Assembly: GCF_056746865.1 (NCBI RefSeq)
Contig: NZ_CM163382.1
Reading direction: 5' to 3' (one strand)
DNA length: 64,000 nucleotides
A program made the position numbers and the translations under genes. Every line of letters starts with the position of its first letter. The first letter of the stretch is position 1. Below the pieces are notes generated by a model that saw nothing but the letters and a program-made list of their open reading frames with translations, made no database searches and was not told where the DNA came from. Below, piece after piece: positions 1 to 42,172 of this stretch.

Positions 1-253
1 TGGCGTCAAGCACTCTGACTGCATGCGTTAAAAATTGTTCGCCGGGTAAGGTAAGTTGCGCCCCCTGACGACCACGCTCAAACAAGCGAGCGCCCGTCAG
101 CTGCTCCAGTTCATTCAATGTCTTAGAGAGCGCAGGTTGACTCAAATTAAGGGTTTCAGCCGCGCGCCCCAAAGTTCCTTGTTGTGCGACAGCTACGAAT
201 GTATGAAGGTGGCGCAAACGGATGCGCTGACTAAACAGACTATTTTTTTCCAT
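1..253 (-). CDS. ydcI: LysR-family transcriptional regulator, N-terminal HTH part (gene continues beyond window start)
   Basis: Minus-strand translation from ATG at 253 gives MEKNSLFSQRIRLRHLHTFVAVAQQGTLGRAAETLNLSQPALSKTLNELEQL..., a typical LysR HTH; divergent from ydcJ as in K-12. Confidence 0.75.
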   Translation of the reverse strand, partial: MEKNSLFSQRIRLRHLHTFVAVAQQGTLGRAAETLNLSQPALSKTLNELEQLTGARLFERGRQGAQLTLPGEQFLTHAVRVLDA

Positions 254-469
254 AAGCGATGTTAAAAACGAAGCGGTGTCGCTGACAAGTGAAGTTGTTT
301 GATTATGATAACTTGATTGCAAAATATTATTAACAATTAAAGCAATTATGTTACAGCAAAATGGATAATATTGATGTTTTCGCGGCGAGATCACAGTTTG
401 TAAATTCTTCCCGCCGGAGTGAATGCGGTTACCTACACTCCAGATTACTGACCACTGGAGGCAGACACT

Positions 470-1813
470 ATGGCGAACAGCATCACGGCGGATGAGATTC
501 GGGAACAGTTTTCGCAGGCAATGTCAGCCATGTACCAGCAAGAAGTTCCGCAGTACGGCACGCTGCTGGAACTGGTAGCTGATGTGAATCTGGCTGTGCT
601 GGAAAACAATCCTCAACTGCACGAAAAAATGGTAAATGCAGACGAGCTGGCGCGACTGAATGTTGAACGTCATGGGGCGATTCGTGTTGGGACTGCACAA
701 GAGCTTGCTACTCTTCGGCGGATGTTTGCCATTATGGGGATGTACCCGGTGAGCTATTACGATCTCTCGCAGGCGGGGGTGCCGGTACATTCGACAGCAT
801 TTCGGCCCATTGATGATGCTTCTCTGGCGCGTAATCCCTTCCGCGTTTTTACTTCATTACTCCGCCTTGAGCTTATCGAGAACGAAATTTTGCGCCAGAA
901 AGCGGCGGAGATTCTGCGTCAGCGCGATATCTTCACCCCACGTTGTCGACAACTGTTAGAGGAATATGAGCAGCGGCGCGGTTTTAACGAAACACAGGCA
1001 CAGGAGTTTGTGCAGGAAGCCCTGGAAACGTTTCGTTGGCACCAGTCAGCAACGGTAGATGAAGAAACCTATCGCGCCTTGCACAACGAACATCGGTTGA
1101 TTGCTGATGTGGTCTGTTTTCCTGGATGCCATATCAACCACCTGACGCCACGTACGCTGGATATTGACCGGGTGCAGTCGATGATGCCTGAATGCGGGAT
1201 TGAACCCAAAATTCTGATCGAAGGGCCGCCGCGCCGCGAGGTACCTATTTTACTACGCCAGACCAGCTTTAAAGCACTGGAAGAGACGGTGTTGTTTGCA
1301 GGGCAGAAACAGGGTACGCATACCGCGCGCTTTGGTGAAATAGAGCAGCGTGGTGTGGCATTAACGCCGAAAGGGCGACAACTGTATGATGATCTTCTGC
1401 GTAACGCTGGAACCGGGCAGGATAATCTCACTCACCAAATGCATTTACAGGAAACCTTCCGCACTTTTCCTGACAGTGAGTTTTTAATGCGTCAGCAAGG
1501 GTTGGCATGGTTCCGGTACCGTCTGACGCCTTCAGGTGAGGCGCATCGTCAGGCGATTCATCCCGGAGACGATCCACAGCCCTTAATTGAACGTGGTTGG
1601 GTAGTGGCGCAACCCATTACCTATGAAGATTTCTTGCCCGTTAGCGCGGCGGGGATCTTCCAGTCAAATCTGGGTAATGAAACGCAGGCACGCAATCACG
1701 GTAATGCCAGTCGCGAGGCATTTGAGCAGGCGTTGGGTTGTCCGGTTTTGGATGAGTTCCAGCTTTATCAGGAAGCGGAAGAACGCAGTAAACGTCGCTG
1801 TGGTTTGCTTTAA
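470..1813 (+). CDS. ydcJ: DUF1338-family protein YdcJ
   Basis: 447-aa ORF with ATG start; sequence and position match the K-12 gene from memory. Confidence 0.85.
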   Translation: MANSITADEIREQFSQAMSAMYQQEVPQYGTLLELVADVNLAVLENNPQLHEKMVNADELARLNVERHGAIRVGTAQELATLRRMFAIMGMYPVSYYDLSQAGVPVHSTAFRPIDDASLARNPFRVFTSLLRLELIENEILRQKAAEILRQRDIFTPRCRQLLEEYEQRRGFNETQAQEFVQEALETFRWHQSATVDEETYRALHNEHRLIADVVCFPGCHINHLTPRTLDIDRVQSMMPECGIEPKILIEGPPRREVPILLRQTSFKALEETVLFAGQKQGTHTARFGEIEQRGVALTPKGRQLYDDLLRNAGTGQDNLTHQMHLQETFRTFPDSEFLMRQQGLAWFRYRLTPSGEAHRQAIHPGDDPQPLIERGWVVAQPITYEDFLPVSAAGIFQSNLGNETQARNHGNASREAFEQALGCPVLDEFQLYQEAEERSKRRCGLL

Positions 1814-2037
1814 ATTCTGACCATCCGCCTTTGCAAAAATTTGCCTGATTTTACAAACGAATCAGGCTCATCCCATCGACATAAAAAAATTGCCGATTTA
1901 TGCATATTCTCTCAGTTCAACAATTGGATTATTAATAAATATTGTCTAGAGTGAGCGGTCATAAATAAGCACTTTCTTGCCGCTGAAAACGACCAGCGCG
2001 GGACCATTCACAACACCAGAAGGACTCACTTTCAGGT

Positions 2038-3693
2038 ATGGATCGTAGACGATTTATTAAAGGTTCAATGGCTATGGCCGCCGTGTGCGGTACCAGCGGC
2101 ATTGCTTCTCTTTTTTCTCAGGCGGCATTCGCGGCAGATTCTGATATTGCCGACGGGCAAACCCAACGTTTTGACTTCTCCATTCTACAGTCAATGGCGC
2201 ACGACTTAGCGCAAACAGCGTGGCGTGGTGCGCCGCGTCCGTTACCTGACACTCTGGCGACAATGACGCCGCAGGCTTATAACAGTATTCAATACGACGC
2301 CGAAAAATCGCTCTGGCATAACGTTGAGAACCGTCAACTGGACGCTCAGTTCTTCCATATGGGAATGGGATTCCGTCGCCGCGTTCGTATGTTTTCTGTA
2401 GATCCAGCAACACATCTGGCGCGTGAAATTCACTTTCGCCCGGAGTTGTTCAAATACAACGATGCGGGTGTTGATACCAAACAATTAGAAGGGCAAAGTG
2501 ATCTCGGTTTTGCCGGTTTTCGCGTGTTTAAAGCCCCCGAACTGGCGCGCCGTGATGTCGTATCATTCCTCGGCGCGAGTTATTTCCGCGCGGTTGATGA
2601 TACATATCAATACGGTTTGTCGGCTCGCGGCCTGGCGATCGACACTTACACCGACAGTAAAGAAGAGTTCCCCGACTTTACCGCCTTCTGGTTTGATACG
2701 GTAAAACCGGGGGCAACCACCTTTACCGTTTATGCGTTGCTCGATAGCGCCAGCATTACTGGTGCCTATAAGTTCACTATCCATTGCGAGAAAAGTCAGG
2801 TGATTATGGATGTGGAAAATCACCTGTATGCGCGCAAAGACATTAAACAGCTGGGCATTGCGCCGATGACCAGTATGTTCAGCTGCGGTACTAATGAACG
2901 TCGGATGTGCGACACCATTCATCCGCAAATCCATGACTCTGATCGTTTGTCCATGTGGCGGGGTAACGGCGAGTGGATTTGTCGTCCGCTGAACAATCCA
3001 CAAAAATTGCAGTTCAATGCTTACACCGACAACAACCCGAAAGGGTTTGGTTTATTGCAACTGGATCGTGATTTCTCCCATTATCAGGACATTATGGGCT
3101 GGTATAACAAACGCCCAAGTCTGTGGGTGGAGCCGCGTAACAAGTGGGGTAAGGGCACCATCGGCCTGATGGAAATCCCAACTACGGGTGAAACGCTGGA
3201 TAACATTGTCTGCTTCTGGCAGCCAGAAAAAGCTGTAAAAGCGGGTGATGAGTTTGCATTCCAGTATCGTCTGTACTGGAGTGCGCAACCGCCTGTTCAT
3301 TGCCCATTAGCGCGCGTTATGGCGACGCGTACCGGCATGGGTGGTTTCCCGGAAGGTTGGGCGCCAGGTGAACACTATCCCGAAAAATGGGCGCGTCGTT
3401 TTGCCGTCGATTTCGTTGGTGGTGATCTGAAAGCTGCCGCGCCAAAAGGCATTGAGCCGGTGATTACGCTTTCCAGTGGGGAAGCGAAGCAAATCGAAAT
3501 TCTCTATATTGAACCCATTGATGGTTATCGTATTCAGTTTGACTGGTATCCGACTTCGGACTCCACTGATCCGGTCGATATGCGGATGTATCTGCGTTGT
3601 CAGGGCGACGCTATCAGTGAAACATGGCTGTATCAGTATTTCCCGCCAGCGCCGGATAAACGTCAGTATGTTGACGACCGCGTGATGAGTTAA
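2038..3693 (+). CDS. opgD: Glucans biosynthesis protein D (periplasmic, Tat signal)
   Basis: 551-aa ORF; N-terminus [32 protein letters not shown] has a twin-arginine motif; matches OpgD/MdoD. Confidence 0.9.
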
Positions 3694-3705
3694 TCGTTTT
3701 TTCTT

Positions 3706-3736
3706 CGGCACCTTCTTCGGGAGGTGCCGTCTGGTT
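3706..3736 (+). terminator. Hairpin downstream of opgD (cggcacct / aggtgccg stem), weak T tail
   Basis: 8-bp inverted repeat read directly in sequence, followed by tctggtt. Confidence 0.35.
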
Positions 3737-3832
3737 AAACACGATCCCGCTCGCATTTTTCCCTAAGTTAAATGAGTAATCTGATAGTGTGTATTTCAGA
3801 TACACCTTGTCAGCCACTAACAGGGAGTGCGT

Positions 3833-4057
3833 ATGTTTCCAGAATACCGAGATTTAATATCCCGTCTGAAAAACGAAAATCCTCGCTTTATGTCCTTGTT
3901 CGATAAACACAATAAACTTGATCATGAAATTGCCAGAAAGGAAGGTTCCGACGGTCGAGGGTACAATGCGGAAGTGGTCCGCATGAAAAAACAAAAGTTA
4001 CAGTTAAAAGATGAGATGCTCAAAATCCTGCAGCAGGAGAGCGTCAAAGAGGTGTAA
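3833..4057 (+). CDS. ydcH: DUF465 small protein YdcH
   Basis: Track ORF starts at GTG 3827; ATG at 3833 gives MFPEYRDLISRLKNENPRF..., 74 aa. Confidence 0.8.
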   Translation: MFPEYRDLISRLKNENPRFMSLFDKHNKLDHEIARKEGSDGRGYNAEVVRMKKQKLQLKDEMLKILQQESVKEV

Positions 4058-4065
4058 ACTTTCCT

Positions 4066-4090
4066 AAGCCGCCAGCCAGGCGGCTTTTTT
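4066..4090 (+). terminator. Rho-independent terminator after ydcH
   Basis: aagccgcc-agcca-ggcggctt stem-loop followed by a T run. Confidence 0.65.
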
Positions 4091-4119
4091 AACAACTGCA
4101 TGGATTGACTGGAGATAAG

Positions 4120-4659
4120 ATGACTGAAACGATAAAAGTAAGCGAATCACTTGAATTACATGCTGTTGCAGAAAATCACGTCACTCCTCTTTATCAGTTA
4201 ATCTGTAAAAATAAAACCTGGTTACAGCAGTCGCTAAACTGGCCGCAGTTTGTTCAAAGTGAAGAGGACACGCGAAAAACGGTGCAGGGCAATGTAATGT
4301 TGCATCAACGCGGATATGCCAAAATGTTCATGATTTTCAAAGAAGATGAACTTATCGGCGTTATCTCGTTTAATCGTATTGAACCACTGAATAAAACCGC
4401 TGAAATCGGCTACTGGCTGGACGAATCTCATCAGGGGCAGGGGATCATTTCTCAGGCGCTGCAGGCATTGATTCATCATTACGCCCAGTCTGGTGAACTT
4501 AGACGCTTCGTGATCAAATGTCGGGTGGACAATGCGCAAAGCAACCAGGTCGCTTTGCGTAATGGTTTTATCCTTGAAGGTTGCCTGAAACAGGCTGAGT
4601 TCCTGAATGATGCCTATGATGATGTGAACTTATACGCGCTTATTATCGATTCACAATAA
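4120..4659 (+). CDS. rimL: Ribosomal-protein-serine N-acetyltransferase (GNAT)
   Basis: Track ORF begins at TTG 4105; ATG at 4120 preceded by a ggag SD gives [28 protein letters not shown]..., 179 aa. Confidence 0.85.
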
Positions 4660-5631
4660 CCCTGCCAGTGGCGTTCGAGTAATGCGTTCCTCGCCGTTAA
4701 TGACTTTTGGACCACGGACATGAACCGTGTCGCCATCAAAGGCTTCAACGACGGCGTGGTCGGTTAACTCCACATGGTTTTCAATTATCACCGCACCTGT
4801 AATACGGCTCTCACCTTGTATGACAACGTGCTCGTCGAGCAGAATCGGTCCGCCACATACCACGGCATTTCCGCCAATCAAGACATGATGTTTTAACACA
4901 CAATTACCTTCCACAATGGCATATTCCGCCACCTGCGAACTGTAATGAATCGTCGGAATGGCATCTTCTTCTATGCCAGCTTTCACCTGCGCGTGACCGT
5001 AGACTTTAGCGCAATCGCATAGCCAGACGTTGTTCTCTTCATTACCTTCAACGCTGGCAAAATCAAAAACTTCGGCGCGATGTTCAATAAAAGCATACCG
5101 GACGACGGCATCGCCATAAATTTGTGCCTGGTGGACAATACGCGAGGCGCTAACCCTTGCGCGATCATAAATTTGGAGCAGGAGTTGATGGTCGGGCGTT
5201 AAGCCTTGTGCGGCGACGATCATAGAATGTTGATCAATTAAGGCGTGACCAAATATTCTACATTGCCCGTAAACTAATGAGTCATGAATGGTGACACTGT
5301 CACTTATATATGCACCCTGGCTGATTTCACTATTATCGATCCAGACGTTATCCGTTGCGTAAACCTCTCCCCACAGCACGCTGGTGCCGGTGATACGCGT
5401 ATTACCGGAAATCACCGTTCCGCCGAACGCAATAGCATTCTGGTCGTAAATCCAGCAATTTCCTTCCTGTGCTAACACCGTTTCGCGATCGATCCAGCCG
5501 CCAGCGGTTCCTGCTATCACATCGTTAAAATCGCTAATGGCGATAATCTGCCGTAATAACACATTTTTTTTAGTGCCATCTTCCTGATAACTAAAGGCTC
5601 GCTGTTCTTCACTTAGACGATATTTGCGCAT
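4651..5631 (-). CDS. ydcK: Hexapeptide-repeat (left-handed beta-helix) protein YdcK
   Basis: 326-aa ORF, ATG start, repeated G-x-A/V-x-I patterns; convergent with rimL. Confidence 0.85.
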
Positions 5632-5754
5632 AGCGTTTTCCCACAGGTGACTTACTATAACCGTAGCAAATTCTGCGGCTCTGGCTATGCTCGAGAAAAT
5701 TCCATAAAATGCATTTCAAATATACTTTATAAATTAAACAAAATGAGTAAGAAG

Positions 5755-6747
5755 ATGCAGAGCGATAAAGTGCTCAATTTGCCGGCAGGCTACTTTGGTA
5801 TTGTGTTGGGGACGATAGGGATGGGATTTGCCTGGCGCTATGCCAGCCAGGTTTGGCAGGTCAGCCACTGGTTAGGGGATGGGCTAGTGATTCTGGCGAT
5901 GATCATCTGGGGATTATTGACTAGCGCATTTATTACCCGACTCATACGCTTTCCGCATAGCGTGCTGGCGGAAGTTCGCCATCCAGTGATGAGCAGTTTT
6001 GTGAGTTTGTTTCCGGCAACGACGATGCTGGTGGCGATTGGTTTTGTTCCGTGGTTTCGCCCACTGGCGGTGTGCCTGTTCAGTTTTGGTGTCGTGGTTC
6101 AGTTGGCTTATGCCGCCTGGCAAACTGCGGGATTATGGCGCGGATCTCATCCTGAAGAAGCTACCACGCCTGGACTGTATCTGCCGACAGTTGCCAACAA
6201 CTTTATCAGCGCAATGGCCTGTGGTGCATTGGGCTACACCGACGCCGGTCTGGTGTTTTTAGGCGCAGGCGTTTTCTCATGGTTAAGCCTGGAACCGGTG
6301 ATCTTGCAGCGACTGCGCAGTTCGGGAGAATTACCCACGGCGCTGCGGACATCACTCGGCATTCAGCTCGCTCCTGCGCTGGTGGCCTGTAGTGCCTGGC
6401 TGAGCGTCAACGGCGGCGAGGGTGACACGCTGGCGAAAATGCTTTTCGGTTATGGGCTGCTGCAACTGCTGTTTATGCTACGTCTGATGCCATGGTATCT
6501 CTCCCAGCCATTTAATGCTTCATTCTGGAGTTTCTCGTTCGGCGTATCTGCACTGGCAACCACCGGTTTGCATCTGGGGAGTGGCAGCGATAATGGATTT
6601 TTCCATACGCTGGCGGTGCCGCTGTTTATCTTTACCAATTTTATAATTGCAATACTGCTCATCCGTACTTTCGCGCTTCTGATGCAGGGGAAATTGTTAA
6701 TCAGAACCGAGCGCGCCGTTTTAATGAAAGCTGAGGACAAAGAATGA
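5755..6747 (+). CDS. tehA: Tellurite resistance protein TehA (TDT-family membrane transporter)
   Basis: Internal ATG at 5755 gives [31 protein letters not shown]..., 330 aa; the track ORF (5647) is a 5' over-extension. Confidence 0.9.
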
Positions 6748-7337
6748 TCATTCGTGACGAAAACTATTTTACTGATAAGTATGAATTAACCCGCACACAC
6801 TCTGAAGTACTGGAAGCGGTGAAAGTGGTTAAACCCGGTAAAACGCTGGATCTGGGCTGTGGCAATGGTCGTAACAGTCTTTACCTGGCAGCCAATGGTT
6901 ATGAAGTTGACGCATGGGATAAAAATGCCATGAGTATCGCCAACGTCGAGCGCATTAAATCCATTGAAAATCTGGATAATTTACACACTCGGGTCGTTGA
7001 TCTGAATAACCTTACGTTTGATGGGCAATACGATTTTATTCTTTCGACTGTGGTGCTGATGTTCCTTGAGGCTAAAACCATCCCAGGGCTGATTGCCAAT
7101 ATGCAACGTTGCACTAAACCTGGCGGTTACAACCTGATTGTGGCGGCGATGGATACCGCTGATTATCCATGTACCGTCGGCTTCCCGTTTGCCTTCAAAG
7201 AGGGAGAATTACGTCGATATTACGAAGGCTGGGAGATGGTGAAATACAATGAAGACGTCGGCGAGCTGCACCGCACCGACGCCAACGGTAATCGTATTAA
7301 ACTGCGTTTCGCCACGATGCTGGCACGTAAAAAATGA
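6744..7337 (+). CDS. tehB: Tellurite methyltransferase TehB (SAM-dependent)
   Basis: 197-aa ORF overlapping the tehA stop by 4 nt; [18 protein letters not shown]-binding motif. Confidence 0.9.
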
Positions 7338-7638
7338 CCCGCTAAGAACAAGGCGCGTGATAATTCCCCCGCTGAGATGGTTTACTGTTCTTCTTTTCGG
7401 TAAGCATAATTTTTATCGAATGGATGTGAAATTAATCACAGTAGTCGAAGTTTTTTAGCAGCTTAACTTACTGAAATTTAACTACTGATGATTGACTTAG
7501 CCCCTTTTTCGGCATTGACTATGTCGTCTGAAAAGGGGCTGAAAAATTTATTTTCACCAACACTTTTTTTGCCACAACACGAAGCGGCGCTTTTTGCTAT
7601 AACTTAGAAAGTAATATAATCATCTCAGGAAACTATTC

Positions 7639-8307
7639 ATGCGTACCACATCAATTGCGAAAGTTGCAGCTTTATGCGGCTTGTTGGCTCTGTCTGGTTG
7701 TGCCTCTAAAATCACCCAGCCAGATAAATATTCTGGTTTTTTAAACAATTACTCTGATTTAAAAGAAACAACCTCAGCAACAGGTAAACCTGTTTTACGT
7801 TGGGTAGACCCGAGTTTTGATCAAAGCAAATATGACAGCATCGTCTGGAACCCAGTCACTTATTATCCGGTACCGAAACCATCTACCCAGGTAGGGCAGA
7901 AAGTTCTGGATAAAATTTTGAGTTATACCAACACCGAAATGAAAGAAGCGATTGCGCAGCGTAAACCACTGGTTACCACCGCTGGGCCGCGTAGTCTGAT
8001 TTTCCGTGGGGCCATTACCGGTGTTGATACCAGCAAAGAAGGGCTGCAATTCTATGAAGTGGTTCCTGTCGCATTAGTGGTCGCGGGGACGCAAATGGCG
8101 ACGGGCCACCGTACCATGGATACTCGCCTCTATTTTGAAGGTGAGCTGATTGATGCAGCTACTAATAAACCGGTTATCAAAGTCGTTCGTCAGGGCGAAG
8201 GTAAAGACCTGAATAACGAAAGTACGCCAATGGCTTTCGAAAATATTAAACAAGTTATTGATGACATGGCGACCGATGCCACTATGTTTGACGTTAACAA
8301 AAAGTAA
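7639..8307 (+). CDS. ydcL: Putative lipoprotein YdcL
   Basis: 222-aa ORF; signal peptide with lipobox (LALSGC). Confidence 0.85.
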   Translation: MRTTSIAKVAALCGLLALSGCASKITQPDKYSGFLNNYSDLKETTSATGKPVLRWVDPSFDQSKYDSIVWNPVTYYPVPKPSTQVGQKVLDKILSYTNTEMKEAIAQRKPLVTTAGPRSLIFRGAITGVDTSKEGLQFYEVVPVALVVAGTQMATGHRTMDTRLYFEGELIDAATNKPVIKVVRQGEGKDLNNESTPMAFENIKQVIDDMATDATMFDVNKK

Positions 8308-8315
8308 TTCCAGCT

Positions 8316-8341
8316 GCGCCATCGTAAGATGGCGCTTTTTA
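8316..8341. terminator. Bidirectional rho-independent terminator between ydcL and ydcO
   Basis: gcgccatc-gtaa-gatggcgc stem-loop followed by TTTTT. Confidence 0.7.
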
Positions 8342-9514
8342 TTATCGGTTTCTGTGAGCGATTAAATTCAACACCACGTAACAAACGCCTCCGGCAATTA
8401 ATCCCCAGAACGCAGAACCAATCCCGACCAGCGTCAATCCACTTGCCGTTACCAGAAATGCCACCACCGCCGCGTCGCGCTCACGCTCATTATGCAGCGC
8501 CTGATACAAACTGCCGCCAATGGTACTCAACAGCGCCAGACCTGCCAGCATCTGGATCCAACTTACGGGCAGGGCAGCCATCATCCCGGTAATAGCACTA
8601 CCAAAAAGACCTGCGAGCAAATAAAAAATGCCTGCAACGGCAGCTGCCAGCCAACGTTGATCTTTATCCGGATGCGCTTCCGGGCTTTGACAAATAGCCG
8701 CGGTGATTGCCGCAATACCGACGGAATAAACGCCGAAAGGGGAAAAAACAAGCGCCAGCAATCCAGTAAACACAATCAACGGCGAAACAGGAGCCGAATA
8801 CCCGGCAGCTTTCATTGCTGCGATACCCGGTGCGTTTTGCGATGCCATCGTCACCAGAAAAAGGGGGAGTGCAACGCTCAGACTGTGAGCAAACGAAAAA
8901 TCAGGGGTAATATAAGTGGGGAGAACGGGGTTAAAGACAACATCATTTGTGACAACGTCACCTTGCGCCATAACGATCACGATCCCAATAATCATCGCGG
9001 CAATTACCGCATAGCGCGGCGCAACGGCCCTGGTTGCCAGCCATACCAGCAACATACTGCCACACAACGTAAATTGACCATCCAGACTGGCAAACGCCTG
9101 TAAACCAAAGCGTAATAAAATCCCGGCAAGCATTGCCGCCGCAAGCGAGTGCGGAATAATGCGCATCAGACGAGCAAAGAGTCCCGTTATGCCGCAGAGG
9201 ACTATTAACGCGTTGGTGACAATAAAAACGCCGATGGCTTCGTTAAGTGTTAATCCCTGTAATCCGGTGACCAACAAAGCCGCGCCAGGCGTTGACCATG
9301 CGGTGAGAACAGGTACGCGATACCATAATGTCAGAGCCAGCGTACTGACGCCCATTGCCAGCCCCAGCGCCGTCATCCAGCCAGAGATTTGTGCAGTGGT
9401 GGCTCCGGCGACAATCGCTGCTTGCCAGATTATTGCCGCTGAACTGGCGTAGCCAATTAATACCGCCAGAAACCCCGCCAGTAGCGTGGGTGGAGGAATA
9501 GAAAACAGACGCAT
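8342..9514 (-). CDS. ydcO: BenE-family membrane transporter YdcO
   Basis: Polytopic membrane protein; ATG at 9514 (MRLFSIPPPTLLAGFLAVLIGY...) chosen over the longer track ORF. Confidence 0.85.
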   Translation of the reverse strand: MRLFSIPPPTLLAGFLAVLIGYASSAAIIWQAAIVAGATTAQISGWMTALGLAMGVSTLALTLWYRVPVLTAWSTPGAALLVTGLQGLTLNEAIGVFIVTNALIVLCGITGLFARLMRIIPHSLAAAMLAGILLRFGLQAFASLDGQFTLCGSMLLVWLATRAVAPRYAVIAAMIIGIVIVMAQGDVVTNDVVFNPVLPTYITPDFSFAHSLSVALPLFLVTMASQNAPGIAAMKAAGYSAPVSPLIVFTGLLALVFSPFGVYSVGIAAITAAICQSPEAHPDKDQRWLAAAVAGIFYLLAGLFGSAITGMMAALPVSWIQMLAGLALLSTIGGSLYQALHNERERDAAVVAFLVTASGLTLVGIGSAFWGLIAGGVCYVVLNLIAHRNR

Positions 9515-9605: not shown

Positions 9606-10142
9606 ATGGAAAATCTCGCTCGCTTTTTATCCACCACACTTAAACAACTACGTCAGCAGCGCGGCTGGAGTCTTTCGCGACTGGCAGAAGCGACGGGCGT
9701 TTCTAAAGCGATGTTAGGGCAGATTGAGCGTAATGAATCCAGCCCGACGGTCGCGACATTATGGAAAATTGCCACCGGGTTGAACGTGCCATTTTCAACA
9801 TTTATTTCTCCGCCGCAGTCCGCTACGCCTTCAGTTTATGATCCACAACGGCAGGCGATGGTGATCACTTCGCTGTTTCCTTATGATCCACAACTCTGCT
9901 TTGAACACTTCTCGATTCAGATGGCACCCGGTGCAATAAGCGAATCGACGCCCCATGAAAAGGGGGTAATCGAACATGTCGTCGTCATTGATGGACAACT
10001 TGATCTGTGCGTTGATGGTGAATGGCAGAGCCTTAATTGTGGAGAAGGCGCTCGATTTGCTGCAGACGTCACGCATGTCTATCGTAATGGAGGGGAGCAA
10101 ACCGTACATTTTCATTCACTCATCCATTACCCGCGCAGTTAA
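9606..10142 (+). CDS. ydcN: XRE-family HTH regulator with C-terminal cupin domain
   Basis: 178-aa ORF, ggagga SD; HTH LSRLAEATGVSKAMLGQIERNESSPT; divergent from ydcO. Confidence 0.85.
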   Translation: MENLARFLSTTLKQLRQQRGWSLSRLAEATGVSKAMLGQIERNESSPTVATLWKIATGLNVPFSTFISPPQSATPSVYDPQRQAMVITSLFPYDPQLCFEHFSIQMAPGAISESTPHEKGVIEHVVVIDGQLDLCVDGEWQSLNCGEGARFAADVTHVYRNGGEQTVHFHSLIHYPRS

Positions 10143-20436: not shown

Positions 20437-20446
20437 GTTAAATGTT

Positions 20447-20478
20447 AGTGGCTGTTATAGGGCGGCCACTATCGTTTT
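20447..20478 (+). terminator. Possible terminator hairpin after patD
   Basis: agtggc ... gccact inverted repeat followed by atcgtttt. Confidence 0.3.
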
Positions 20479-20658
20479 AGGTTCTGAGTGTAATGGTGAT
20501 TAAGTATCAGAATGATTACATTAATAACTAGCGGAAAAATTAGGCAGTTATTATGATCTAAATGTATGTTGGTGATTTTTCATCCTGTCATAGTTGATTC
20601 GCATAAGGCTTTAGAGTATCGTTATTAACCTAATAATTTATAAGTAGAAGTATTAACA

Positions 20659-21468
20659 ATGAAAGTTCAATTGTATAAATTCACGGAAGATAAAAATAAA
20701 ACCCTTACCTTCAGGTGGACGAAAAAACACTTTGAGTTTTGTATGGATAATAAAATCTTTTTAAATCATAAGGGGAAGAAGTCGTATAAAGAAAGAAATT
20801 TATTTCTTTTCTCAAAAGGTGACAAGATAACAATTGAAGATAATGTTATTGCTGAAGAATATTCAACAATGCCTGTAAAAAATTTCTCCAGTGTCGGCGC
20901 TTTTTCATTCCCGACCTGTCATTTTACAGGGAATATACATATAGGTCGATTTTGTAGTATTGCATCAAATGTAAAAATAATGGGAGGAAATCATCCTTTG
21001 AATCGTTTTACTACTCACATGATGACTTATAACGGTGAATTTGATAAGTTTGCTAAGAGTGAGTTTGAACGTAGCTGGACATTGAAACCATTCATTACCA
21101 AACCTGAAAATCCGATTATAGGAAATGATGTCTGGATAGGAAATGATGTTGTACTGAAAGGTGGCATCGCAATAGGTGATGGTGCTGTTATTGCTGCCAA
21201 TTCCGTTGTTACCAAAGATGTGCCCCCATATGCCATAGTTGCAGGAGTTCCTGCAAAAATAATCAGATTTAGATTTGATTCAAATGTTATTGATGAATTG
21301 TTGAGAATAAAGTGGTGGAATTATAATTACTCAGATCTTCCGGATAATAACAAATGTGATGATATAAATTATTTTGTTGAAGAGATGAATCGATTGATAT
21401 CAAATGGAAATATTCAAGAGATGGACTATAAAAAATTCAATCTTTCTGAGATATTTAGAGACCTATAA
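20659..21468 (+). CDS. Hexapeptide-repeat acetyltransferase, XAT/Vat (streptogramin A / xenobiotic acetyltransferase)-like
   Basis: 269-aa ORF in a low-GC islet; IGRFCSIASNVKIMGGNHPLNRFTTH and IGNDVWIGNDVVLKGGIAIGDGAVIAANSVV resemble XAT-family motifs. Confidence 0.65.
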   Translation: MKVQLYKFTEDKNKTLTFRWTKKHFEFCMDNKIFLNHKGKKSYKERNLFLFSKGDKITIEDNVIAEEYSTMPVKNFSSVGAFSFPTCHFTGNIHIGRFCSIASNVKIMGGNHPLNRFTTHMMTYNGEFDKFAKSEFERSWTLKPFITKPENPIIGNDVWIGNDVVLKGGIAIGDGAVIAANSVVTKDVPPYAIVAGVPAKIIRFRFDSNVIDELLRIKWWNYNYSDLPDNNKCDDINYFVEEMNRLISNGNIQEMDYKKFNLSEIFRDL

Positions 21469-21869
21469 TTATCTGTTCTGCATGATAAATGGGCAAGATA
21501 ACCAGTTCGGGGTTTGCAATTTCAATGGGACAGCGTCATCAAGGAGGTTGCAATCATCCTGCCATGCATATACTTTACGCCATCTTTTTATATTTACTTT
21601 ATTCCCTGAAAGTATAAAGCATTTATAGACTCCCGCGCGTCTAAAGTATTGATGATAGAAAAATGTGAAAACAAGGTTCCCTTTGAATCAGTAAGCTGTC
21701 TGTATAGACGACAGGAGGGGGATGTTTTCTACTTATTTCAATGTAGATGTCAGGAAAAAGAAGTAAATATTAAGGATAATGTTGTAAACCTGGAGAGTAT
21801 GAGATGATCTTGCGTACTGTCAGAGCACTGATTTCTCTGACAGTACGTGCTGCGTGCAAAATCACTACA

Positions 21870-31017: not shown

Positions 31018-31635
31018 ATGATTAAGGTGTATGGCGTACCCGGATGGGGCTCTACAATCAGTGAGCTGATGCTAACACTGGCTGATATTCCTTATCAGTT
31101 CGTTGATGTCAGTGGTTTTGACCACGAGGGAACCTCACGCGAGTTATTGAAAACCCTGAACCCGTTGTGTCAGATTCCGACACTGGCGCTGGAAAATGAC
31201 GAGATTATGACGGAGACAGCGGCGATTGCATTGATGGTTCTCGATCGTCGCCCGGACCTTGCGCCACCGGTTGGGCGCGCCGAACGTCAGCAGTTTCAAC
31301 GGCTATTGGTCTGGCTGGTTGCTAATGTCTATCCAACATTCACTTTCGCCGATTACCCTGAGCGTTGGGCTCCTGACGCACCCGAACAGTTAAAGAATAA
31401 TGTTATTGAATATCGTAAATCGCTTTATATCTGGCTGAATTCACAATTGACCGCTGAACCTTATGCCTTTGGCGAGCAACTAACGCTGGTGGACTGTTAT
31501 CTCTGCACCATGCGCACATGGGGGCCGGGGCATGAATGGTTTCACGATAATGCGCAGAATATCAGCGCGATCGCTGAAGCTGTATGTCAGTTACCGAAAT
31601 TACAAGAAGTATTAAAAAGGAATGTCATTATTTAA
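31018..31635 (+). CDS. yncG: Glutathione S-transferase homolog
   Basis: 205-aa ORF with GST-like fold signature. Confidence 0.85.
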   Translation: MIKVYGVPGWGSTISELMLTLADIPYQFVDVSGFDHEGTSRELLKTLNPLCQIPTLALENDEIMTETAAIALMVLDRRPDLAPPVGRAERQQFQRLLVWLVANVYPTFTFADYPERWAPDAPEQLKNNVIEYRKSLYIWLNSQLTAEPYAFGEQLTLVDCYLCTMRTWGPGHEWFHDNAQNISAIAEAVCQLPKLQEVLKRNVII

Positions 31636-32174
31636 CAATAATGCCGGAGGTTAATGTTAATGAATCACTGGCGTAATTAACTGGATATCCATTTGTTTGC
31701 TATGAATAGTAATTAAAGTTGGTACAACTATTTATATGATTGATGTAATTTCGTTTTTTATATGAAATATCAATTTAATATAATCCGAAAATAAAACATC
31801 TTTTCGCATGTAGAGAAACATGTCGATATGATAGTGCAGTGCAGATCATGTCATCAGGGTAGGGCGGTAGCGTATTTAATCAGGGAAAGATTACGCAACG
31901 CTGCTTTTTTGTATTGAACGATTCGCATTTTATGTTTAAAAATTGCGATATTCCTTATTTCCTGAAGCTGTTTTTATTGCTTATACATGATCAAATACTC
32001 CTTACATAATTAAGGAGAACAAAATGGAACTTAATACACGCCAACAATTTGTATTACTTAAATAGACCAGTGAAGGTACGCATCAGAACATCCGGTGAAG
32101 TGATTAATATTTCGTTGAATATTTCTCCCGATTTTTGAAACCTGCTGCTGTAGAAATTCTGAACAGGAGGAATT

Positions 32175-32459
32175 ATGCCTTTAGCAGCCAAACTCACCGA
32201 CAAAGGCACCCAGCACGACGGTTATTACGAGACCGTCATCACCGCCGGGTCATCCACCGTCTTTATCGATGGTCTTCCCGCAGCCCGTCAGGGAGATCCG
32301 CTGACGCCGCATGCTAAACCGAAGCATCCCCCTCATCCCCGTAAAATCGCCAGAGGTTCTTCAACCGTCTTTATTGACGGCCTGCCCGCCGCCAGAAGCG
32401 GTGATGCTGTTGACTGCGGCGGCGTGGTTATTGGTGGCGGTACGGTAAATATAGGCTGA
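32175..32459 (+). CDS. PAAR-repeat protein (T6SS spike tip)
   Basis: 94-aa ORF with aggagg SD; duplicated GSSTVFIDGLPAAR(Q/S)GD motif. Confidence 0.75.
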   Translation: MPLAAKLTDKGTQHDGYYETVITAGSSTVFIDGLPAARQGDPLTPHAKPKHPPHPRKIARGSSTVFIDGLPAARSGDAVDCGGVVIGGGTVNIG

Positions 32460-32477
32460 TATGTCTGAGAGGTATTT

Positions 32478-34883
32478 ATGTCCTTAAAAGGTCTTCGCTT
32501 TACGCTGGAGGTTGACGGCCAGGAGCCGGACACCTTTGCAGTGGTGAATTTCAGGTTAATCCAGAACCAGTCATATCCGTTTGTGATGAGTGTGGATGTT
32601 GCCAGCGACTCTTTTATGCAGACGGCGGAGATGCTGCTGGAGAAGAAGGCGACACTGACCATCTGGCAGGGCGCAGTGGCGCAGCGTTATGTCACCGGCG
32701 TGGTGGCGGGTTTTGGCATGCAGGAGAATAACGGCTGGCAGATGCGTTATCACCTGCGTATTGAGCCGCCGTTATGGCGGTGCGGGCTGCGGCAGAACTT
32801 TCGTATCTTCCAGCAGCAGGATATCCGGACGATATCGGCCACGTTACTGAACGAGAACGGCGTCACGGAGTGGACGCCGCTGTTTTATGAGGACCATCCG
32901 GCGCGGGAGTTCTGTGTCCAGTACGGGGAGTCGGACCTGGCGTTTCTGTCCCGGCTATGGGCGGAGGAGGGTCTTTTCTTCTTTGAGCGGTTTGCGGCGG
33001 ACAGTCCGGAGCAGAAGCTGACGCTGTGCGACGATGTGGCGGGGCTGTCACAGGCGGGGGAGTTTCCGTTTAACCCGGACACATCGGCAGGAGCGGAGAC
33101 GGAGTGTGTCAGTATGTTCCGTTATGAGGCGCATGTCCGCCCGTCATCGGTGCAGAGCCAGGATTACACCTTTAAGGTGCCGGACTGGCCGGGGATGTAT
33201 GAGCAGCAGGGTGAGAACCTGAACGGACAGCTGGAGCAGTATGAGATATTTGATTATCCGGGAAGGTACAAGGATGAACAGCACGGCAAGGATTTCACGC
33301 TGTACCAGATGGAGAGCCTGCGCAGTGATGCGGAAAAGGCCACAGGGCAGAGTAATTCGCCGAAGCTGTGGCCGGGAACGCGGTTTATGCTGACGGGGCA
33401 TCCGCAGAAGATGCTGAACCGTGAATGGCAGGTGGTACAGAGCATACTGTCAGGAAACCAGCCGCAGGCGCTGCACGGCAGCCAGGGAAAGGGAACCACG
33501 CTGGGCAATCAGTTAGAGGTGATACCGGCGGACCGGACGTGGCGTCCACGGCTGCAAAACAAACCGAAGGTGGACGGGCCACAGAGCGCCATTGTCACCG
33601 GTCCTGCGGGAGAGGAAATCTTCTGCGACGAACACGGACGTGTGCGAGTGCAGTTTCACTGGGACAGGTATAACCCGGCAACGGAGGCGAGTTCATGCTG
33701 GGTGAGGGTGTCGCAGGCGTGGGCGGGGCCGGGGTTCGGTAACCTGGCGATACCACGGGTGGGTCAGGAGGTGATAGTGGACTTCCTGAACGGCGACCCG
33801 GACCAGCCGATAATCATGGGGCGGACGTACCATGAGGACAACCGTTCGCCGGGCGACCTGCCGGGAACGAAGACGCAGATGACCATCCGGTCAAAAACCT
33901 ATAAAGGAAGCGGATTTAACGAGCTGCGGTTTGAAGACGCCACCAGTAATGAGCAGGTGTATATCCATGCCCAGAAGAACATGGATACGGAGGTGCTCAA
34001 CGACCGGACAACGGATGTGAAACATGACCATACGGAAACCATCGGGAACGACCAGAAGATAACGGTGGTGAAGGGGCAGACGGTTCAGGTCGGGACCAGA
34101 AAAGAAGGGGGCCACGACCAGAGTATCACGGTGGCGAACGACCGGTGCATCACGGTACGTAATGACCAGACGCTGCAGGTGACGAATGACCGGACGGTGA
34201 GCGTGAGTAATGATGACGGCCTGTACGTCAGAAATGACCGTAAAGTGACGGTGGAAGGGAAGCAGGAGCATAAGACGACGGGGAACCATATCAGTCTGGT
34301 GGAGGGAAAGCACAGCCTGGTGGTGAAGGGGGACCTGGCGAGGAAGGTGAGTGGCGCGCTGGGGATAAAGGTGGACGGGGATATCGTGCTGGAGAGCAGC
34401 AGCCGGATAAGCCTGAAGGTGAGTGGCTCGTTTGTGGTCATCCATTCAGGGGGCGTGGACATCGTCGGGCCGAAAATCAATCTCAATAGCGGCGGTAGTC
34501 CGGGGACGCCGGTGCCGGCGCTGCAACCGGCGGTGCTGAAGACACTGGGGGATGAGAAGAGTGGTGATGGCAGTGATTCCGGAGAAGAAAATGAAGACTC
34601 TGGAGGGAACTGCGTGACCGGAAGTGGTGGTGATGATCGAGGTGACGATGAGGATGAACCTGAAAAATATACTCTCCAGTTCCATTTTACAGACGATGAC
34701 GGGATACCGTATTCAGAAACCCGCTACATTGCCTTCTTTGAGGATGGCACGCAGACCCGCGGAGAAACGGATGAAGAGGGGTATACAGAGCGTTTTTTTG
34801 TATCTAGCAAACATGAAATTAAAGTGAAGTTGTTATTTGCGAATGATGATTTTCTCTCAATGGAAGGACACTATGGACGATAA
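32478..34883 (+). CDS. vgrG: VgrG (type VI secretion spike protein) with C-terminal extension
   Basis: 801-aa ORF: gp27/gp5-like N-terminal part, beta-helix repeats (ITVANDRCITVRNDQTLQVTNDRTVSVSNDDGLYVRNDRKVTV), acidic Gly/Asp/Glu linker, then a ~70-aa C-terminal domain. Confidence 0.9.
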   Translation: MSLKGLRFTLEVDGQEPDTFAVVNFRLIQNQSYPFVMSVDVASDSFMQTAEMLLEKKATLTIWQGAVAQRYVTGVVAGFGMQENNGWQMRYHLRIEPPLWRCGLRQNFRIFQQQDIRTISATLLNENGVTEWTPLFYEDHPAREFCVQYGESDLAFLSRLWAEEGLFFFERFAADSPEQKLTLCDDVAGLSQAGEFPFNPDTSAGAETECVSMFRYEAHVRPSSVQSQDYTFKVPDWPGMYEQQGENLNGQLEQYEIFDYPGRYKDEQHGKDFTLYQMESLRSDAEKATGQSNSPKLWPGTRFMLTGHPQKMLNREWQVVQSILSGNQPQALHGSQGKGTTLGNQLEVIPADRTWRPRLQNKPKVDGPQSAIVTGPAGEEIFCDEHGRVRVQFHWDRYNPATEASSCWVRVSQAWAGPGFGNLAIPRVGQEVIVDFLNGDPDQPIIMGRTYHEDNRSPGDLPGTKTQMTIRSKTYKGSGFNELRFEDATSNEQVYIHAQKNMDTEVLNDRTTDVKHDHTETIGNDQKITVVKGQTVQVGTRKEGGHDQSITVANDRCITVRNDQTLQVTNDRTVSVSNDDGLYVRNDRKVTVEGKQEHKTTGNHISLVEGKHSLVVKGDLARKVSGALGIKVDGDIVLESSSRISLKVSGSFVVIHSGGVDIVGPKINLNSGGSPGTPVPALQPAVLKTLGDEKSGDGSDSGEENEDSGGNCVTGSGGDDRGDDEDEPEKYTLQFHFTDDDGIPYSETRYIAFFEDGTQTRGETDEEGYTERFFVSSKHEIKVKLLFANDDFLSMEGHYGR

Positions 34884-35664
34884 TAATCAAACTTCTGGAC
34901 AACCAAAGCCAGAGCCAGAAGAATGTGTGAAAGAGCAAAAAATAACTGATCATTTTAAAATAATGATTGATAAGGCTCGTAAGGCACAAAAGTTGGTTTT
35001 GATAAAAAGAGCAGATGATCTTTTGAGATGGGGAGCACAGGAGGAATATGATTTCAGTAAGATCTTTGGTGTTAAAGGAAATAAGGAGGTTAATATAAGA
35101 AAATATGGACATAATACAGGTAGGCGCATGAATGCTAGATTTCTTATGATGGATGGTGTGAGAAGATTAATGATTATAGCTAATGATTTAACAATGAGCA
35201 GTTTTATAAATTATACAGGTTGTAATGAATTTGCAGCATTCGTCAGCCCAAGTAAGGATATGCCCTATATAATTAACATAGGCGCAAAATTTGAGTATAG
35301 AGATGGCAAAAAAAATCCAGTAACGGGAAAGGATTCTCATGTTGCTACTTTATGTCATGAAATGTCTCATATTCAGTGGTATTATGGGGATAATAAAAAA
35401 GGTGGTATGTGGTCACAGGATTATACAACTACTGATAAATATTCAACGTGCAAAGAGGATGAAGTTTCATATGACGAACATATCCGTATTGCAACTAAAC
35501 TGATCTCTAAACAAAAAGATCAAATATTCGAGAATGCATATAACATAGAAAGATATTTTGAAATAAGATTAATTGAAAGTGAGATAGACTCGATTAATGA
35601 TGAAATATTAAGCAATTCAGTTAAGAAAAAAATAGCGGAATTAGAAAAAGCACTTCTCCATTAA
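34873..35664 (+). CDS. Candidate VgrG cargo effector with HExxH (zincin-like) motif
   Basis: ATG overlaps the vgrG stop (ATGGACGATAA); 263 aa; HEMSH at nt 35356-35370; GC content drops sharply at the vgrG stop. Confidence 0.55.
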   Translation: MDDNNQTSGQPKPEPEECVKEQKITDHFKIMIDKARKAQKLVLIKRADDLLRWGAQEEYDFSKIFGVKGNKEVNIRKYGHNTGRRMNARFLMMDGVRRLMIIANDLTMSSFINYTGCNEFAAFVSPSKDMPYIINIGAKFEYRDGKKNPVTGKDSHVATLCHEMSHIQWYYGDNKKGGMWSQDYTTTDKYSTCKEDEVSYDEHIRIATKLISKQKDQIFENAYNIERYFEIRLIESEIDSINDEILSNSVKKKIAELEKALLH

Positions 35665-35716
35665 CTAATAAGTCGAGAAATATATTAATGCTGCAAGCTA
35701 TAAAAAAATCATAATA

Positions 35717-36346
35717 ATGACAATCGTAAATATTATATTTTTCTATTCCTTTCAATCGACTGCGGATGAAATGGTTTTAATAAAAAAATACGGGTTTGGG
35801 CTTGAGAGAGATATCAAAGGAAGGCCATTAATTTATCCTATCGAAAATTATGATGAGTGTAAGAAAAAATGCAATCATATGAATTATATAGCGGATGTCA
35901 ATGCTCAATTAGCTATGAGTAAAAAAAACAACAGGATTTTTGCTAACATAACCTTTACTAACAATAGCTCTACCACGTATTTTTTTTCTAAATATTACCT
36001 ACCTATGAAAGTAAAAGATGGAAAAGGAGATGAATATGATGCGATATGCAAAAAACCATTCAGAATCAACTCTGGGAATATCACGTTGGACTACTTAGGT
36101 GGTTCATGTCCTTTTGAAATTAATACGAATCCTGAACGGTGGAATACTATTAAACCAGGTCGTAGTTTTTTGTTGAGTATAACCTTAAATGATATGTATG
36201 CCTTTATACCAGGAGATAATTATTATTTTATAAAATCATCTGGCTATAAATTTGTTAATGACAAGTGGTTTACACTCAAATCAATCAATAATATTTTTCT
36301 TTATTTTTTAAATTTAAAAATTAATTGTGCTGATGATTTTTTTTGA
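35717..36346 (+). CDS. Hypothetical protein, candidate immunity partner (ends at a T8 tract)
   Basis: 209-aa AT-rich ORF directly downstream of the effector candidate; stop lies in a T8 homopolymer; downstream ORF 36327-36509 is in the +1 frame. Confidence 0.4.
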   Translation: MTIVNIIFFYSFQSTADEMVLIKKYGFGLERDIKGRPLIYPIENYDECKKKCNHMNYIADVNAQLAMSKKNNRIFANITFTNNSSTTYFFSKYYLPMKVKDGKGDEYDAICKKPFRINSGNITLDYLGGSCPFEINTNPERWNTIKPGRSFLLSITLNDMYAFIPGDNYYFIKSSGYKFVNDKWFTLKSINNIFLYFLNLKINCADDFF

Positions 36347-36528
36347 TATTAATAATTTTACTACATGTGATAATTTGTTATTAGATGAAAAAAAATACTT
36401 TTTTATTAATCAGTTATGGGCAATTGAGGATGAAAAAAATTCTATTTACGTCACCCCTGATGAAATTTCTATAAGTATAGACGGCGATAACTTAAAGTTG
36501 CCATATTAGGAATCTGTGAAAGAACAAG

Positions 36529-37017
36529 GTGCGCCGCTTTTTTGTACTAAATAATTCGCATTTTAGTCACGGCAGAGAAGAAATCCATCTTCATATTGTT
36601 TGCGATGTCCCTGATGAACTTATTGATTTCACGTTTGAATGGAAAGGTCAGAAGAAATTATGCGTGGCAGTCTCCTTTTGGTCAATAATAGCAGAACAAA
36701 AGAAAGAGCCAGAAATGACGGTCAGATATTATATCAGTTCTGCTGATTTAACCGCAAAAAAGTTCGCCACAGCGATACGAAATCACTGGCACGTGGAGAA
36801 TAAGCTGCACTGGCGTCTGGACGTGGTAATGAACGAAGACGACTGCAAAATAAGAAGAGGAAACGCCGCAGAATTATTTTCAGGGATACGGCACATCGCT
36901 ATTAATATTTTAACGAATGATAAGGTATTCAAGGCAGGGTTAAGACGCAAGATGCGAAAAGCAGCTATGGACAGAGACTACCTCGCGTCAGTCCTTGCGG
37001 GGAGCGGGCTTTCGTAA
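36529..37017 (+). pseudogene. H-repeat-associated (ISAs1-family transposase) 3' remnant
   Basis: Translation ...[44 protein letters not shown]...[22 protein letters not shown] resembles the C-terminus of H-rpt proteins; no N-terminal half present. Confidence 0.7.
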
Positions 37018-37125
37018 TCTTGCCCTGGCGATCGAATAGCGCAGATGACGGTGCTCTAAATTTGAATCTAATAAGCCGGTGTTATTTTTCATCCACTATT
37101 AAAATCTTGACACAACGAGGCAACA

Positions 37126-37686
37126 ATGAAAAAAAGCAAAAAAATTAAAACAATGAACCATCAAAATAATAGCGGGATACAAAATCAACCAGACTATCAC
37201 ATCGAAATAGAAAGAAAAAATATGGTAAGATTGCTTGATGAACGTATTGATAAAGTTTACGGTTCATTGCTAGGACCAATGAAAAAGAAAAATATAGATA
37301 AAATACGTCATTTTACACTTGATGTAATGGTGTTTATTCTTGACACGAACCCTCGTGTTTGTAATAAATTATCCAGGGAAATAATATCTTTAGCGCAAAA
37401 TACCTTCATTGAAAAAAACGTTAATTTTTCAACTTTTAATAATGAACAGCATAGAATAAGGGAGTATATGAATGAAGGTGGTGGAATACGATGGTTTACA
37501 TGGGATAACCCCGAGATATCTTTTGTTCGTGCATCTTTTGGCCTTTTTGTCAAAATGGAAACAAAAGGTGATCATGAACATACACTAAGTGACACATTTC
37601 TTCAGATTGTTGAGTGTGTTAATTTAAATATAGGACTTATTGCAAAAGATGAACTGGTAAAAATCATCAATAAACACTTTATGTAA
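37126..37686 (+). CDS. Hypothetical protein (AT-rich orphan ORF)
   Basis: 186-aa ORF, ATG with acgagg SD, low GC; no motif recognised. Confidence 0.45.
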   Translation: MKKSKKIKTMNHQNNSGIQNQPDYHIEIERKNMVRLLDERIDKVYGSLLGPMKKKNIDKIRHFTLDVMVFILDTNPRVCNKLSREIISLAQNTFIEKNVNFSTFNNEQHRIREYMNEGGGIRWFTWDNPEISFVRASFGLFVKMETKGDHEHTLSDTFLQIVECVNLNIGLIAKDELVKIINKHFM

Positions 37687-38045
37687 AAATATACTTCTGT
37701 ATGAAGTTATAATAATACAGTGAAAATCATCAAATTATTAATTAATGATGCTCTTTGTTATTATTTACTTTTTACAATTGAATCAGGGGTTTTATTTTCT
37801 GTAGTAAAGTTGTATTTTTGCTAAAGGTGATAAAGTACAGGTGTTTATATTAAATTAGAACTCCCCTTAATTATCATAAATACAAAGAGGTGAAAACATG
37901 CGGGGGTGTTTTCGTTAAATAATACCATGGTGAATTAATAACATGCTATCAGTGATATACATATTTTCTCTAACAAAGTTTTAGTAAAATTACGCGTAGT
38001 AAGAAGATTCCGCCAAAGATTCCATATAATAATATTAAGGTTGTT

Positions 38046-38681
38046 ATGAATAAAGGTAATAGATTACAACAGTTAGAAGATGCGTGTCGTGATATTATTA
38101 AAATTAACATGTGGTATGAACTCCCCGATTATGTATTTTTTTCAATATCTGACACCATCGATGGGACGAGTGATGAATTCGCAATAAATGTGTATAAAAA
38201 TATCGATAAAAGTCTTCTTGAAATATTATTGCATCCATCTGTTTTACTGTCAGTTGTTGAGTCCTTACAAAGTAATACTATAGCTGAGTATATCGTGAAA
38301 TTGTCTGAAATAGAGATGAATTATGACGACTTGCTAATATCGGATGTTAAATCATGTCTTTTTATCAACTATGGATTCAATAACAGTGAATCGGTTGCGC
38401 TATTTAATAAGATTTACCGCGAATTAAAAGATATTGTAAAATCATCAAGAGTACATATAGATCATGAGAAAGATATTTTTGATGGCCTTAATCAAATCTT
38501 GGCTTTTTCCGATAATAATAAACATGAGTATTTTTTATATATAAAGGCATATTGGCTCAGTTTATACTTTTGTGAAATTTCACAGAACGTGAGAGAAAGA
38601 GATAAGTTGTCATTTTATTATAATGAATTTTCTGTCCGATTTCCTAATGTTGTCCTATATCCGTCATGCTACAAATTGTAA
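38046..38681 (+). CDS. Hypothetical protein (AT-rich orphan ORF)
   Basis: 211-aa ORF, ATG start, low GC; no motif recognised. Confidence 0.45.
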   Translation: MNKGNRLQQLEDACRDIIKINMWYELPDYVFFSISDTIDGTSDEFAINVYKNIDKSLLEILLHPSVLLSVVESLQSNTIAEYIVKLSEIEMNYDDLLISDVKSCLFINYGFNNSESVALFNKIYRELKDIVKSSRVHIDHEKDIFDGLNQILAFSDNNKHEYFLYIKAYWLSLYFCEISQNVRERDKLSFYYNEFSVRFPNVVLYPSCYKL

Positions 38682-38806
38682 GGCTTGGCACCTGAAATTC
38701 ATTGTTAATTCGAGACGCTTGATTGTCCACTATATCAAAACAGTCATACCTCGGAATTTTCTCGCATTAGTCCATACGGTATTCAATATTCGCAACTGTG
38801 CCCTGA

Positions 38807-39007
38807 AATAAAAAACTGCAAAACTGCTTTTTCTTGACCTGTCCCAATCACGCAAGACTACTTTTAGTAGAGACCTCCAGCTATGTCGATTTTAGTGCCG
38901 CCCGCGCATTTTATACAAAACAGGGCTTTATTAATGAAGCTATAATACGCAATTACTATGATGTTGGTGAGGATAAATTAATCTTCACTAAAAATATGCA
39001 ATCGTGA
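38807..39007 (+). pseudogene. 3' remnant of a GNAT acetyltransferase gene
   Basis: Open frame without start encodes ...YVDFSAARAFYTKQGFINEAIIRNYYDVGEDKLIFTKNMQS; A-x-x-FY-x-K-x-GF is the classic GNAT C-terminal motif. Confidence 0.4.
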
Positions 39008-39073
39008 GATAAAATATGCTTTTAACTCATATTGAAACATTGCTTAAGCAACTTGGTTGCTGCATATGATTCT

Positions 39074-39643: not shown

Positions 39644-39817
39644 GGTATCGCCTCGCTAAGAAGGGGGTTTTAAAAGCGTAGCTCGTAACGCTATAAGTAA
39701 CGAAATTAACGGGATTGGCGATTTGCGAACGTGATGCATGTCCGCGATCGCACAAAATAGCCGGTGCGGCGTCTATTCCAGGTTATAAGTTGAGAAAACC
39801 ACTAAGGGAAACGCCTG

Positions 39818-40663: not shown

Positions 40664-40743
40664 TTTATGTCAGGTTGCCGGATGCGGCGTAATGAACTGC
40701 ACCCCAAATGTTGGACATAATCTGACATCTGAAGGTGCAGTTT

Positions 40744-41265: not shown

Positions 41266-41369
41266 GGTGCGGACACTGCCAGTCTGACCTGTTAAAGGCT
41301 GCAGGGCTGGCCAGAAGCACGCTGTACTACCAGCTGTCACTGCAGAAGGCTAAGGACAAGTATGCTGAT

Positions 41370-42124
<755 letters not shown>

Positions 42125-42172
42125 AAACGCCTTATCCGGCATACATAGACCTGATAAGCGAAGCGCATCAGG
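42125..42172. repeat. REP palindromic units (right half of the interrupted REP plus an adjacent REP)
   Basis: aaacgccttatccggc...gacctgataagcgaagcgcatcaggc. Confidence 0.6.

Follow-up and report, generated by a model that had tools for sequence, protein, structure and literature searches.

The window analyzed here, the whole 64,000-nucleotide stretch of DNA, very probably carries the ancestral, never-interrupted junction between ydcL and ydcO, with IS609 having inserted once in the K-12-type lineage and with the sequenced strain not being K-12. The two genes are convergent and their stop codons are exactly 34 bp apart, with the TAA of ydcO lying on the complement at 8342–8344 (read from 8344 to 8342). 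Other strains with identical DNA have these gene names in their RefSeq annotation (Table 1). No IS609 DNA is present in the whole 64-kb window by blastn, for which the best result is a 21-nt chance match, and tblastn finds no InsQ-like coding sequence or remnant over the same length. Between ydcL and ydcO there is no coding sequence for a Y1 (HUH) TnpA or for a TnpB. The initial annotation had described the genes as directly adjacent across a 34-bp gap with no IS609-type gene between them, which is what these searches and the exact coordinates bear out.

Table 1. Features of the window (positions in the window; position 1 is its first letter)
Feature	Position	Strand	Basis or content
ydcL, DUF3313 lipoprotein gene	7639–8307	+	ORF; PF11769, E 5.7e-63; stop TAA 8305–8307
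ydcL–ydcO spacer	8308–8341		34 bp; TTCCAGCTGCGCCATCGTAAGATGGCGCTTTTTA; the K-12 IS609 site when unoccupied (probably ancestral)
Terminator-like hairpin and T5 tract	8316–8335 (hairpin), 8336–8340 (T5)	+	GCGCCATC-GTAA-GATGGCGC; predicted, canonical for ydcL only
TTAT (TTTAT from 8338), IS609 target motif	8339–8342	+	K-12 IS609 left end abuts base 8342
ydcO, BenE-family transporter gene, 390 aa	8342–9514	−	ORF; PF03594, E 3e-161; TIGR00843, 700 bits
Flank of IS609 right end in K-12	8343–8362	+	19/20 bases match K-12
Target sequence 3′ of TTTAT			K-12 type TATCGGTTTCTGTCAGCGAT; window type ...GTGAGCGAT
sutR (ydcN), HTH/cupin regulator gene, divergent with respect to ydcO	9606–10142	+	context
Insert directly after patD, absent from MG1655	20438–21763		1.3 kb, 33.6% GC; 269-aa hexapeptide-repeat acyltransferase-like protein (PF00132)
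Segment replacing most of K-12 rhsE(pseudo)/ydcD/yncI/ydcC	31634–42145		43.6% GC
Divergent yddJ/yddK/yddL region, partly alignable to MG1655	52660–55164		38.5% GC
SECIS_3 element (Rfam)	57402–57460		84 bits; fdnG position, expected selenocysteine insertion signal

In MG1655 (NC_000913.3), an annotated "insertion sequence:IS609" occupies 1503161–1504908 between ydcL and ydcO. BLAST aligns window positions 1–8342 with MG1655 up to 1503160 and the window from 8343 onward with MG1655 from 1504909, which directly places the insertion point of the 1748-bp element at 8342|8343. The window junction reads GCGCTTTTTAT|TATCGGTTTCTGT, and the K-12 junctions read GCGCTTTTTAT|CCGGTGCG...GGATGTCAA|TATCGGTTTCTGT (in short form, TTTTTAT|CCGG...GTCAA|TATCGG in K-12 versus TTTTTAT|TATCGG in the window). 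Compared with the empty site of the window, the K-12 copy has no target-site duplication, and the boundary is unambiguous because element and flank bases differ beside each breakpoint. Alignment to MG1655 had been named beforehand as the check on the claim that the window is in the uninterrupted state; the gap between the genes is 1779 bp in MG1655, so the 34-bp junction that would have contradicted the claim does not occur there, and the exact breakpoint against the filled K-12 site agrees with it. The initial annotation was also right that IS609 lies between these genes in K-12, but its description of ydcM/insQ as the transposase gene needs refining, as the product is now annotated as "putative RNA-guided DNA endonuclease InsQ" (TnpB).

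The insertion splits the ydcO stop codon (window 8342–8344). As a result, YdcO ends in ...IADRNRY* in K-12, as it does in strain 55989, versus ...IAHRNR* in the window. The extra Tyr and the TGA stop of the K-12 and 55989 proteins both come from the right end of IS609 (7906–7917 of the extracted MG1655 segment).

MG1655 IS609 contains the yncK pseudogene (tnpA) on one strand and insQ (tnpB) on the other. YncK matches PF01797 (Y1_Tnp, IS200-like transposase), with its frame interrupted by a stop at codon 96, and InsQ matches PF01385 (OrfB_IS605), PF07282 (Cas12f1-like TNB domain) and PF12323 (HTH_OrfB_IS605). The transposase proper of IS609 is thus the yncK/tnpA pseudogene, and insQ is TnpB. 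The K-12 copy is dead, and the literature is in agreement: the stop codon in the transposase gene yncK has been reported (PMC2891674), and IS609 is single-copy in MG1655 and made 0/758 of the new insertions in mutation-accumulation lines (PMC5009759). Different IS609 copies carry different tnpA lesions, and the O157:H7 copy at gltX/yfeD has none, with no internal stop. Among the copies examined, tnpB is annotated as intact in all six that are full-length and is truncated only in strain CFIAFB20190167. The tnpA frame does not end in a stop inside the element and crosses its left end into the flank (6100–6650 of the extracted MG1655 segment), so the C-terminus of TnpA would depend on the insertion site.

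IS609 copies were retrieved at four other sites: gltX/yfeD (in O157:H7), a glv/sulfatase locus, yajI and ybcM/yedK. All copies are 1747–1748 bp long and their right flanks share no sequence, and TTAT lies just 5′ of the left end at 5/5 independent sites, extended to TTTAT at four of the five. The TTAT of the window is thus an intact IS609 target. The K-12 copy, read against the empty site of the window, lies 3′ of this fixed tetranucleotide without duplication, and these two properties together are the signature of the single-strand "peel-and-paste" transposition of the IS200/IS605 family (PMC10055086). At the right end of IS609 the subterminal hairpin stands out clearly (z −3.4); the left end folds no better than its shuffles (z −0.6), and both ends share a CCTTCAGGGCG core. 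The + strand of the window has a positive GC skew throughout; IS608 prefers targets that lie on the template of the lagging strand. Compared with the K-12 locus, the window has the exact target of the element, TTAT and then TATCGGTTTCTGT..., and is collinear on both sides; it differs in lacking the element and in flanks that are ~2–3% divergent, including position 14 of the right flank.

We sampled 5426 complete E. coli genomes with two 200-bp probes. One crosses the window junction and was scored as empty when contiguously covered; the other crosses the left junction, that of ydcL with IS609, in K-12 and marks the filled state. By direct count, the junction is empty in 2043/5426 genomes (38%), O157:H7 and O145:H28 among them, and the left junction is filled by IS609 in 3267/5426 (~60%), which include K-12, B-strain derivatives, W and 55989. 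About 106 of the 5426 fit neither class. One of these was examined, strain CFIAFB20190167 (NZ_CM143724.1), in which a deletion starts within insQ and extends into rlhA, with loss of ydcO and sutR.

For outgroups, a degenerate-codon pattern of the YdcO C-terminus was searched over species-representative genomes, which yielded ten loci and makes for a partial sample, with E. albertii, E. fergusonii and E. marmotae missed by the pattern scan. Four of them are non-K-12 Escherichia loci, from E. whittamii, Escherichia sp. E1V33 and two divergent strains labelled "E. coli", SCPM-O-B-8794 and E69. At each of the four, ydcL and ydcO are separated by these 34 bp, the stem of the hairpin is unchanged, and InsQ is missing. 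Because the same empty spacer is observed directly in four divergent Escherichia lineages, the simplest reading of these sequences is that the empty state is ancestral in Escherichia. Three of the four have CTGAT or CGGAT in the place of the TTTAT or CTTAT of E. coli, which suggests that the TTAT target is younger than the spacer. In more distant genera, ydcL and ydcO are farther apart than in Escherichia, and among the loci recovered the tight 34-bp junction is seen in Escherichia only. In Citrobacter gillenii, the gap from ydcO to ydcL is ~2 kb (3411–5376 of the extracted segment) and contains two ORFs (289 and 302 aa), neither of them IS609, whose products we read, by eye from the sequences, as a probable AraC-type regulator and a probable EamA/DMT-type membrane protein. 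The two genes are likewise ~2 kb apart in Silvania.

The history that we favor is that IS609, encoding the Y1 transposase TnpA and TnpB, would have inserted once at this site, in the ancestry of K-12 and of ~60% of the E. coli sequenced. It would have entered 3′ of the TTAT at 8339–8342 by single-strand "peel-and-paste" without target duplication, splitting the ydcO stop codon, and would then have been inherited vertically while tnpA decayed. The lineage of the window strain would never have acquired IS609 here; a lineage without this insertion is not K-12. Strain 55989 has its copy in exactly this position, with 98.6% identity to that of K-12 and with a frameshifting deletion and a different stop in tnpA. 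The shared site, this level of identity and the different tnpA lesions fit old vertical descent. A single old insertion, followed by vertical inheritance with independent tnpA decay in different lineages, is accordingly the simplest reading, the case for one event being the shared insertion point plus a single A-versus-B1 comparison.

The vacant site also has the layout on which IS605-family TnpB acts. TTTAT at 8338–8342 is followed directly by the match to the right flank of the K-12 element, and a TTTAT-like motif next to a right-flank match is the configuration targeted by these nucleases (PMC10055086). The match would be a putative target for a K-12-type TnpB guide RNA; that TnpB could recognize the vacant site is our inference, made by analogy with this family. 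The mismatch is at base 14 of the flank (window 8356), which is G in the window and C in K-12. This position, 14 nt from the IS609 insertion point, corresponds to YdcO residue 386 and has three alleles: His in the window, Asp in K-12 and 55989, and Asn in strain C9, in which the base is T, as it also is in E. whittamii. In a permissive-threshold Rfam search of K-12 IS609, the only matches are sub-threshold ones to HgcC (22 bits; gathering threshold 50) and RAGATH-18 (25 bits; gathering threshold 44.9). They span the 3′ end of tnpB and the right end of the element (7793–7919 of the extracted MG1655 segment), the expected place for a guide RNA. Such scores hint at a possible structured RNA at the 3′ end of IS609 and are not evidence of one. 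The site resembles the scarless "donor joint", or vacant homologous site, of IS200/IS605 elements (Meers et al., PMC10055086) in that the transposon-adjacent motif abuts the right-end flank. It differs in that its vacancy is probably ancestral, the outgroups being empty, rather than a demonstrated product of excision, and in that the window holds no TnpB or guide RNA to act on it.

An empty site of this kind could in principle arise by loss. If the window lineage had once carried IS609 here and lost it through precise TnpA-mediated excision, the site would itself be a scarless donor joint: excision in the IS200/IS605 family rejoins the flanks exactly (PMC10055086), regenerating precisely a sequence of the window type, and the TTTAT|TATCGG of the window is the exact join of the K-12 flanks. 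Also in its favor, at least one IS609 copy, that at gltX/yfeD in O157:H7, has a tnpA frame without an internal stop. We nevertheless regard this history as very unlikely: all four divergent Escherichia lineages are empty and excision therefore need not be invoked, the flanks of the window are ~2–3% different from those of IS609-bearing haplotypes, IS609 is absent from the window, and tnpA is dead in both of the copies examined at the ydcL–ydcO locus. Strain C9, which is empty and has a K-12-like left flank, was considered as a recent excision derivative, and its 97.9% identity to K-12 over 3.1 kb proved uninformative.

Two further readings deserve even less credence than excision alone. One extends it, proposing that a once-occupied lineage lost IS609 scarlessly and that the G at 8356 helps the vacant site to escape re-homing by a K-12-type TnpB guide RNA, a combination that we judge highly improbable. 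The other, to which we assign almost no probability, is that the adjacency of ydcL and ydcO is an artefact of assembly or collapse and that an IS lies between them in the real genome. We found no points in its favor, and against it the same contiguous junction occurs in >2000 independent complete genomes, many of them 100% identical to the window over 2–25 kb. The never-interrupted junction thus remains the reading that we prefer.

The conclusion of the initial annotation that the window is not from K-12 is well founded, and on broader grounds than the absence of IS609. The window aligns with MG1655 1494819–1554442 at 93.8–98.2% identity in aligned blocks, and besides IS609 there are three further structural differences, each a region that does not align or aligns only in part: the insert after patD, the rhsE-region replacement and the yddJ/yddK/yddL region. 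A K-12 origin would show as near-identity to MG1655 with a matching IS content at the locus, and the window has neither. The replacement segment encodes an 801-aa VgrG-type spike (Phage_GPD, Gp5_trimer_C, Phage_base_V), followed by several ORFs without a Pfam match. Over its first 25 kb, the window has 100% identity to numerous isolates from clinical, animal and environmental sources, 2017C-4173W12, SCU-482 and FDAARGOS_1290 among them. No markers for phylogroup or sequence typing fall within the window. The overall divergence argues against K-12 far more strongly than does the IS site by itself. Filled sites are not specific to K-12, given the 3267/5426 genomes that have one, and an empty site excludes K-12 and says little more.

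Presence or absence of IS609 between ydcL and ydcO is known biology and an ordinary difference between strains. The present analysis adds modestly to it by placing the breakpoint inside the ydcO stop codon, by identifying TTAT as the IS609 target motif, and by giving the proportions of empty and filled sites together with a probable ancestral state for the genus. In practice, the empty site can serve as a quick marker that excludes K-12 and K-12-like genomes. It would further offer a ready natural substrate on which to ask whether IS609 TnpB homes into vacant sites.

The spacer was initially annotated as containing a bidirectional terminator. The hairpin is there, but a T-tract follows it in the ydcL direction only. 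The stem has eight pairs, six of them G-C, closed by a GTAA loop. The RNA folding energy is −16.3 kcal/mol for the + strand (z = −3.2; 2/200 shuffles do equally well) and −15.4 kcal/mol for the − strand. On the + strand the stem runs into TTTTTATTAT, so that a G+C-rich stem-loop is followed by a T/U tract as in an intrinsic terminator, and a consensus scan reports a terminator on this strand only. In the − strand direction, AGCTGGAATTAC comes after the stem (in the longer stretch AGCUGGAAUUAC), and a T-run (a U-run in RNA) begins only 12 nt later; the consensus scan has no match on this strand, and no T-tract lies 0–2 nt past the stem. A T/U tract directly past the stem is therefore not found on both strands. 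Across the whole window, Rfam at gathering thresholds has no match at the spacer, its only hit being the fdnG SECIS element.

On sequence grounds, the hairpin is a canonical predicted terminator for ydcL and, for ydcO, at best a hairpin without a U-tract. It would act as a Rho-independent terminator of ydcL and as at most a weak stop for ydcO. That it is a true bidirectional terminator serving both genes is conceivable, as a single strong hairpin lies between the convergent stops, folds equally well on both strands and has a stem that is invariant across the aligned Escherichia sequences, six in number. We nonetheless find this rather doubtful, since the scan site is on the + strand alone and the other strand has no T-tract at the stem, and since in K-12-type genomes IS609 puts 1.7 kb between ydcO and the hairpin without obvious loss of ydcO. 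Compared with Rho-independent terminators shared by convergent genes, the hairpin is alike in having an 8-bp G+C-rich stem, a 4-nt loop and then T5, and in lying directly downstream of ydcL and 6 nt past the ydcO stop on the other strand. It is unlike canonical bidirectional terminators in having no A-tract/T-tract symmetry, and it fits the consensus in the ydcL direction alone.
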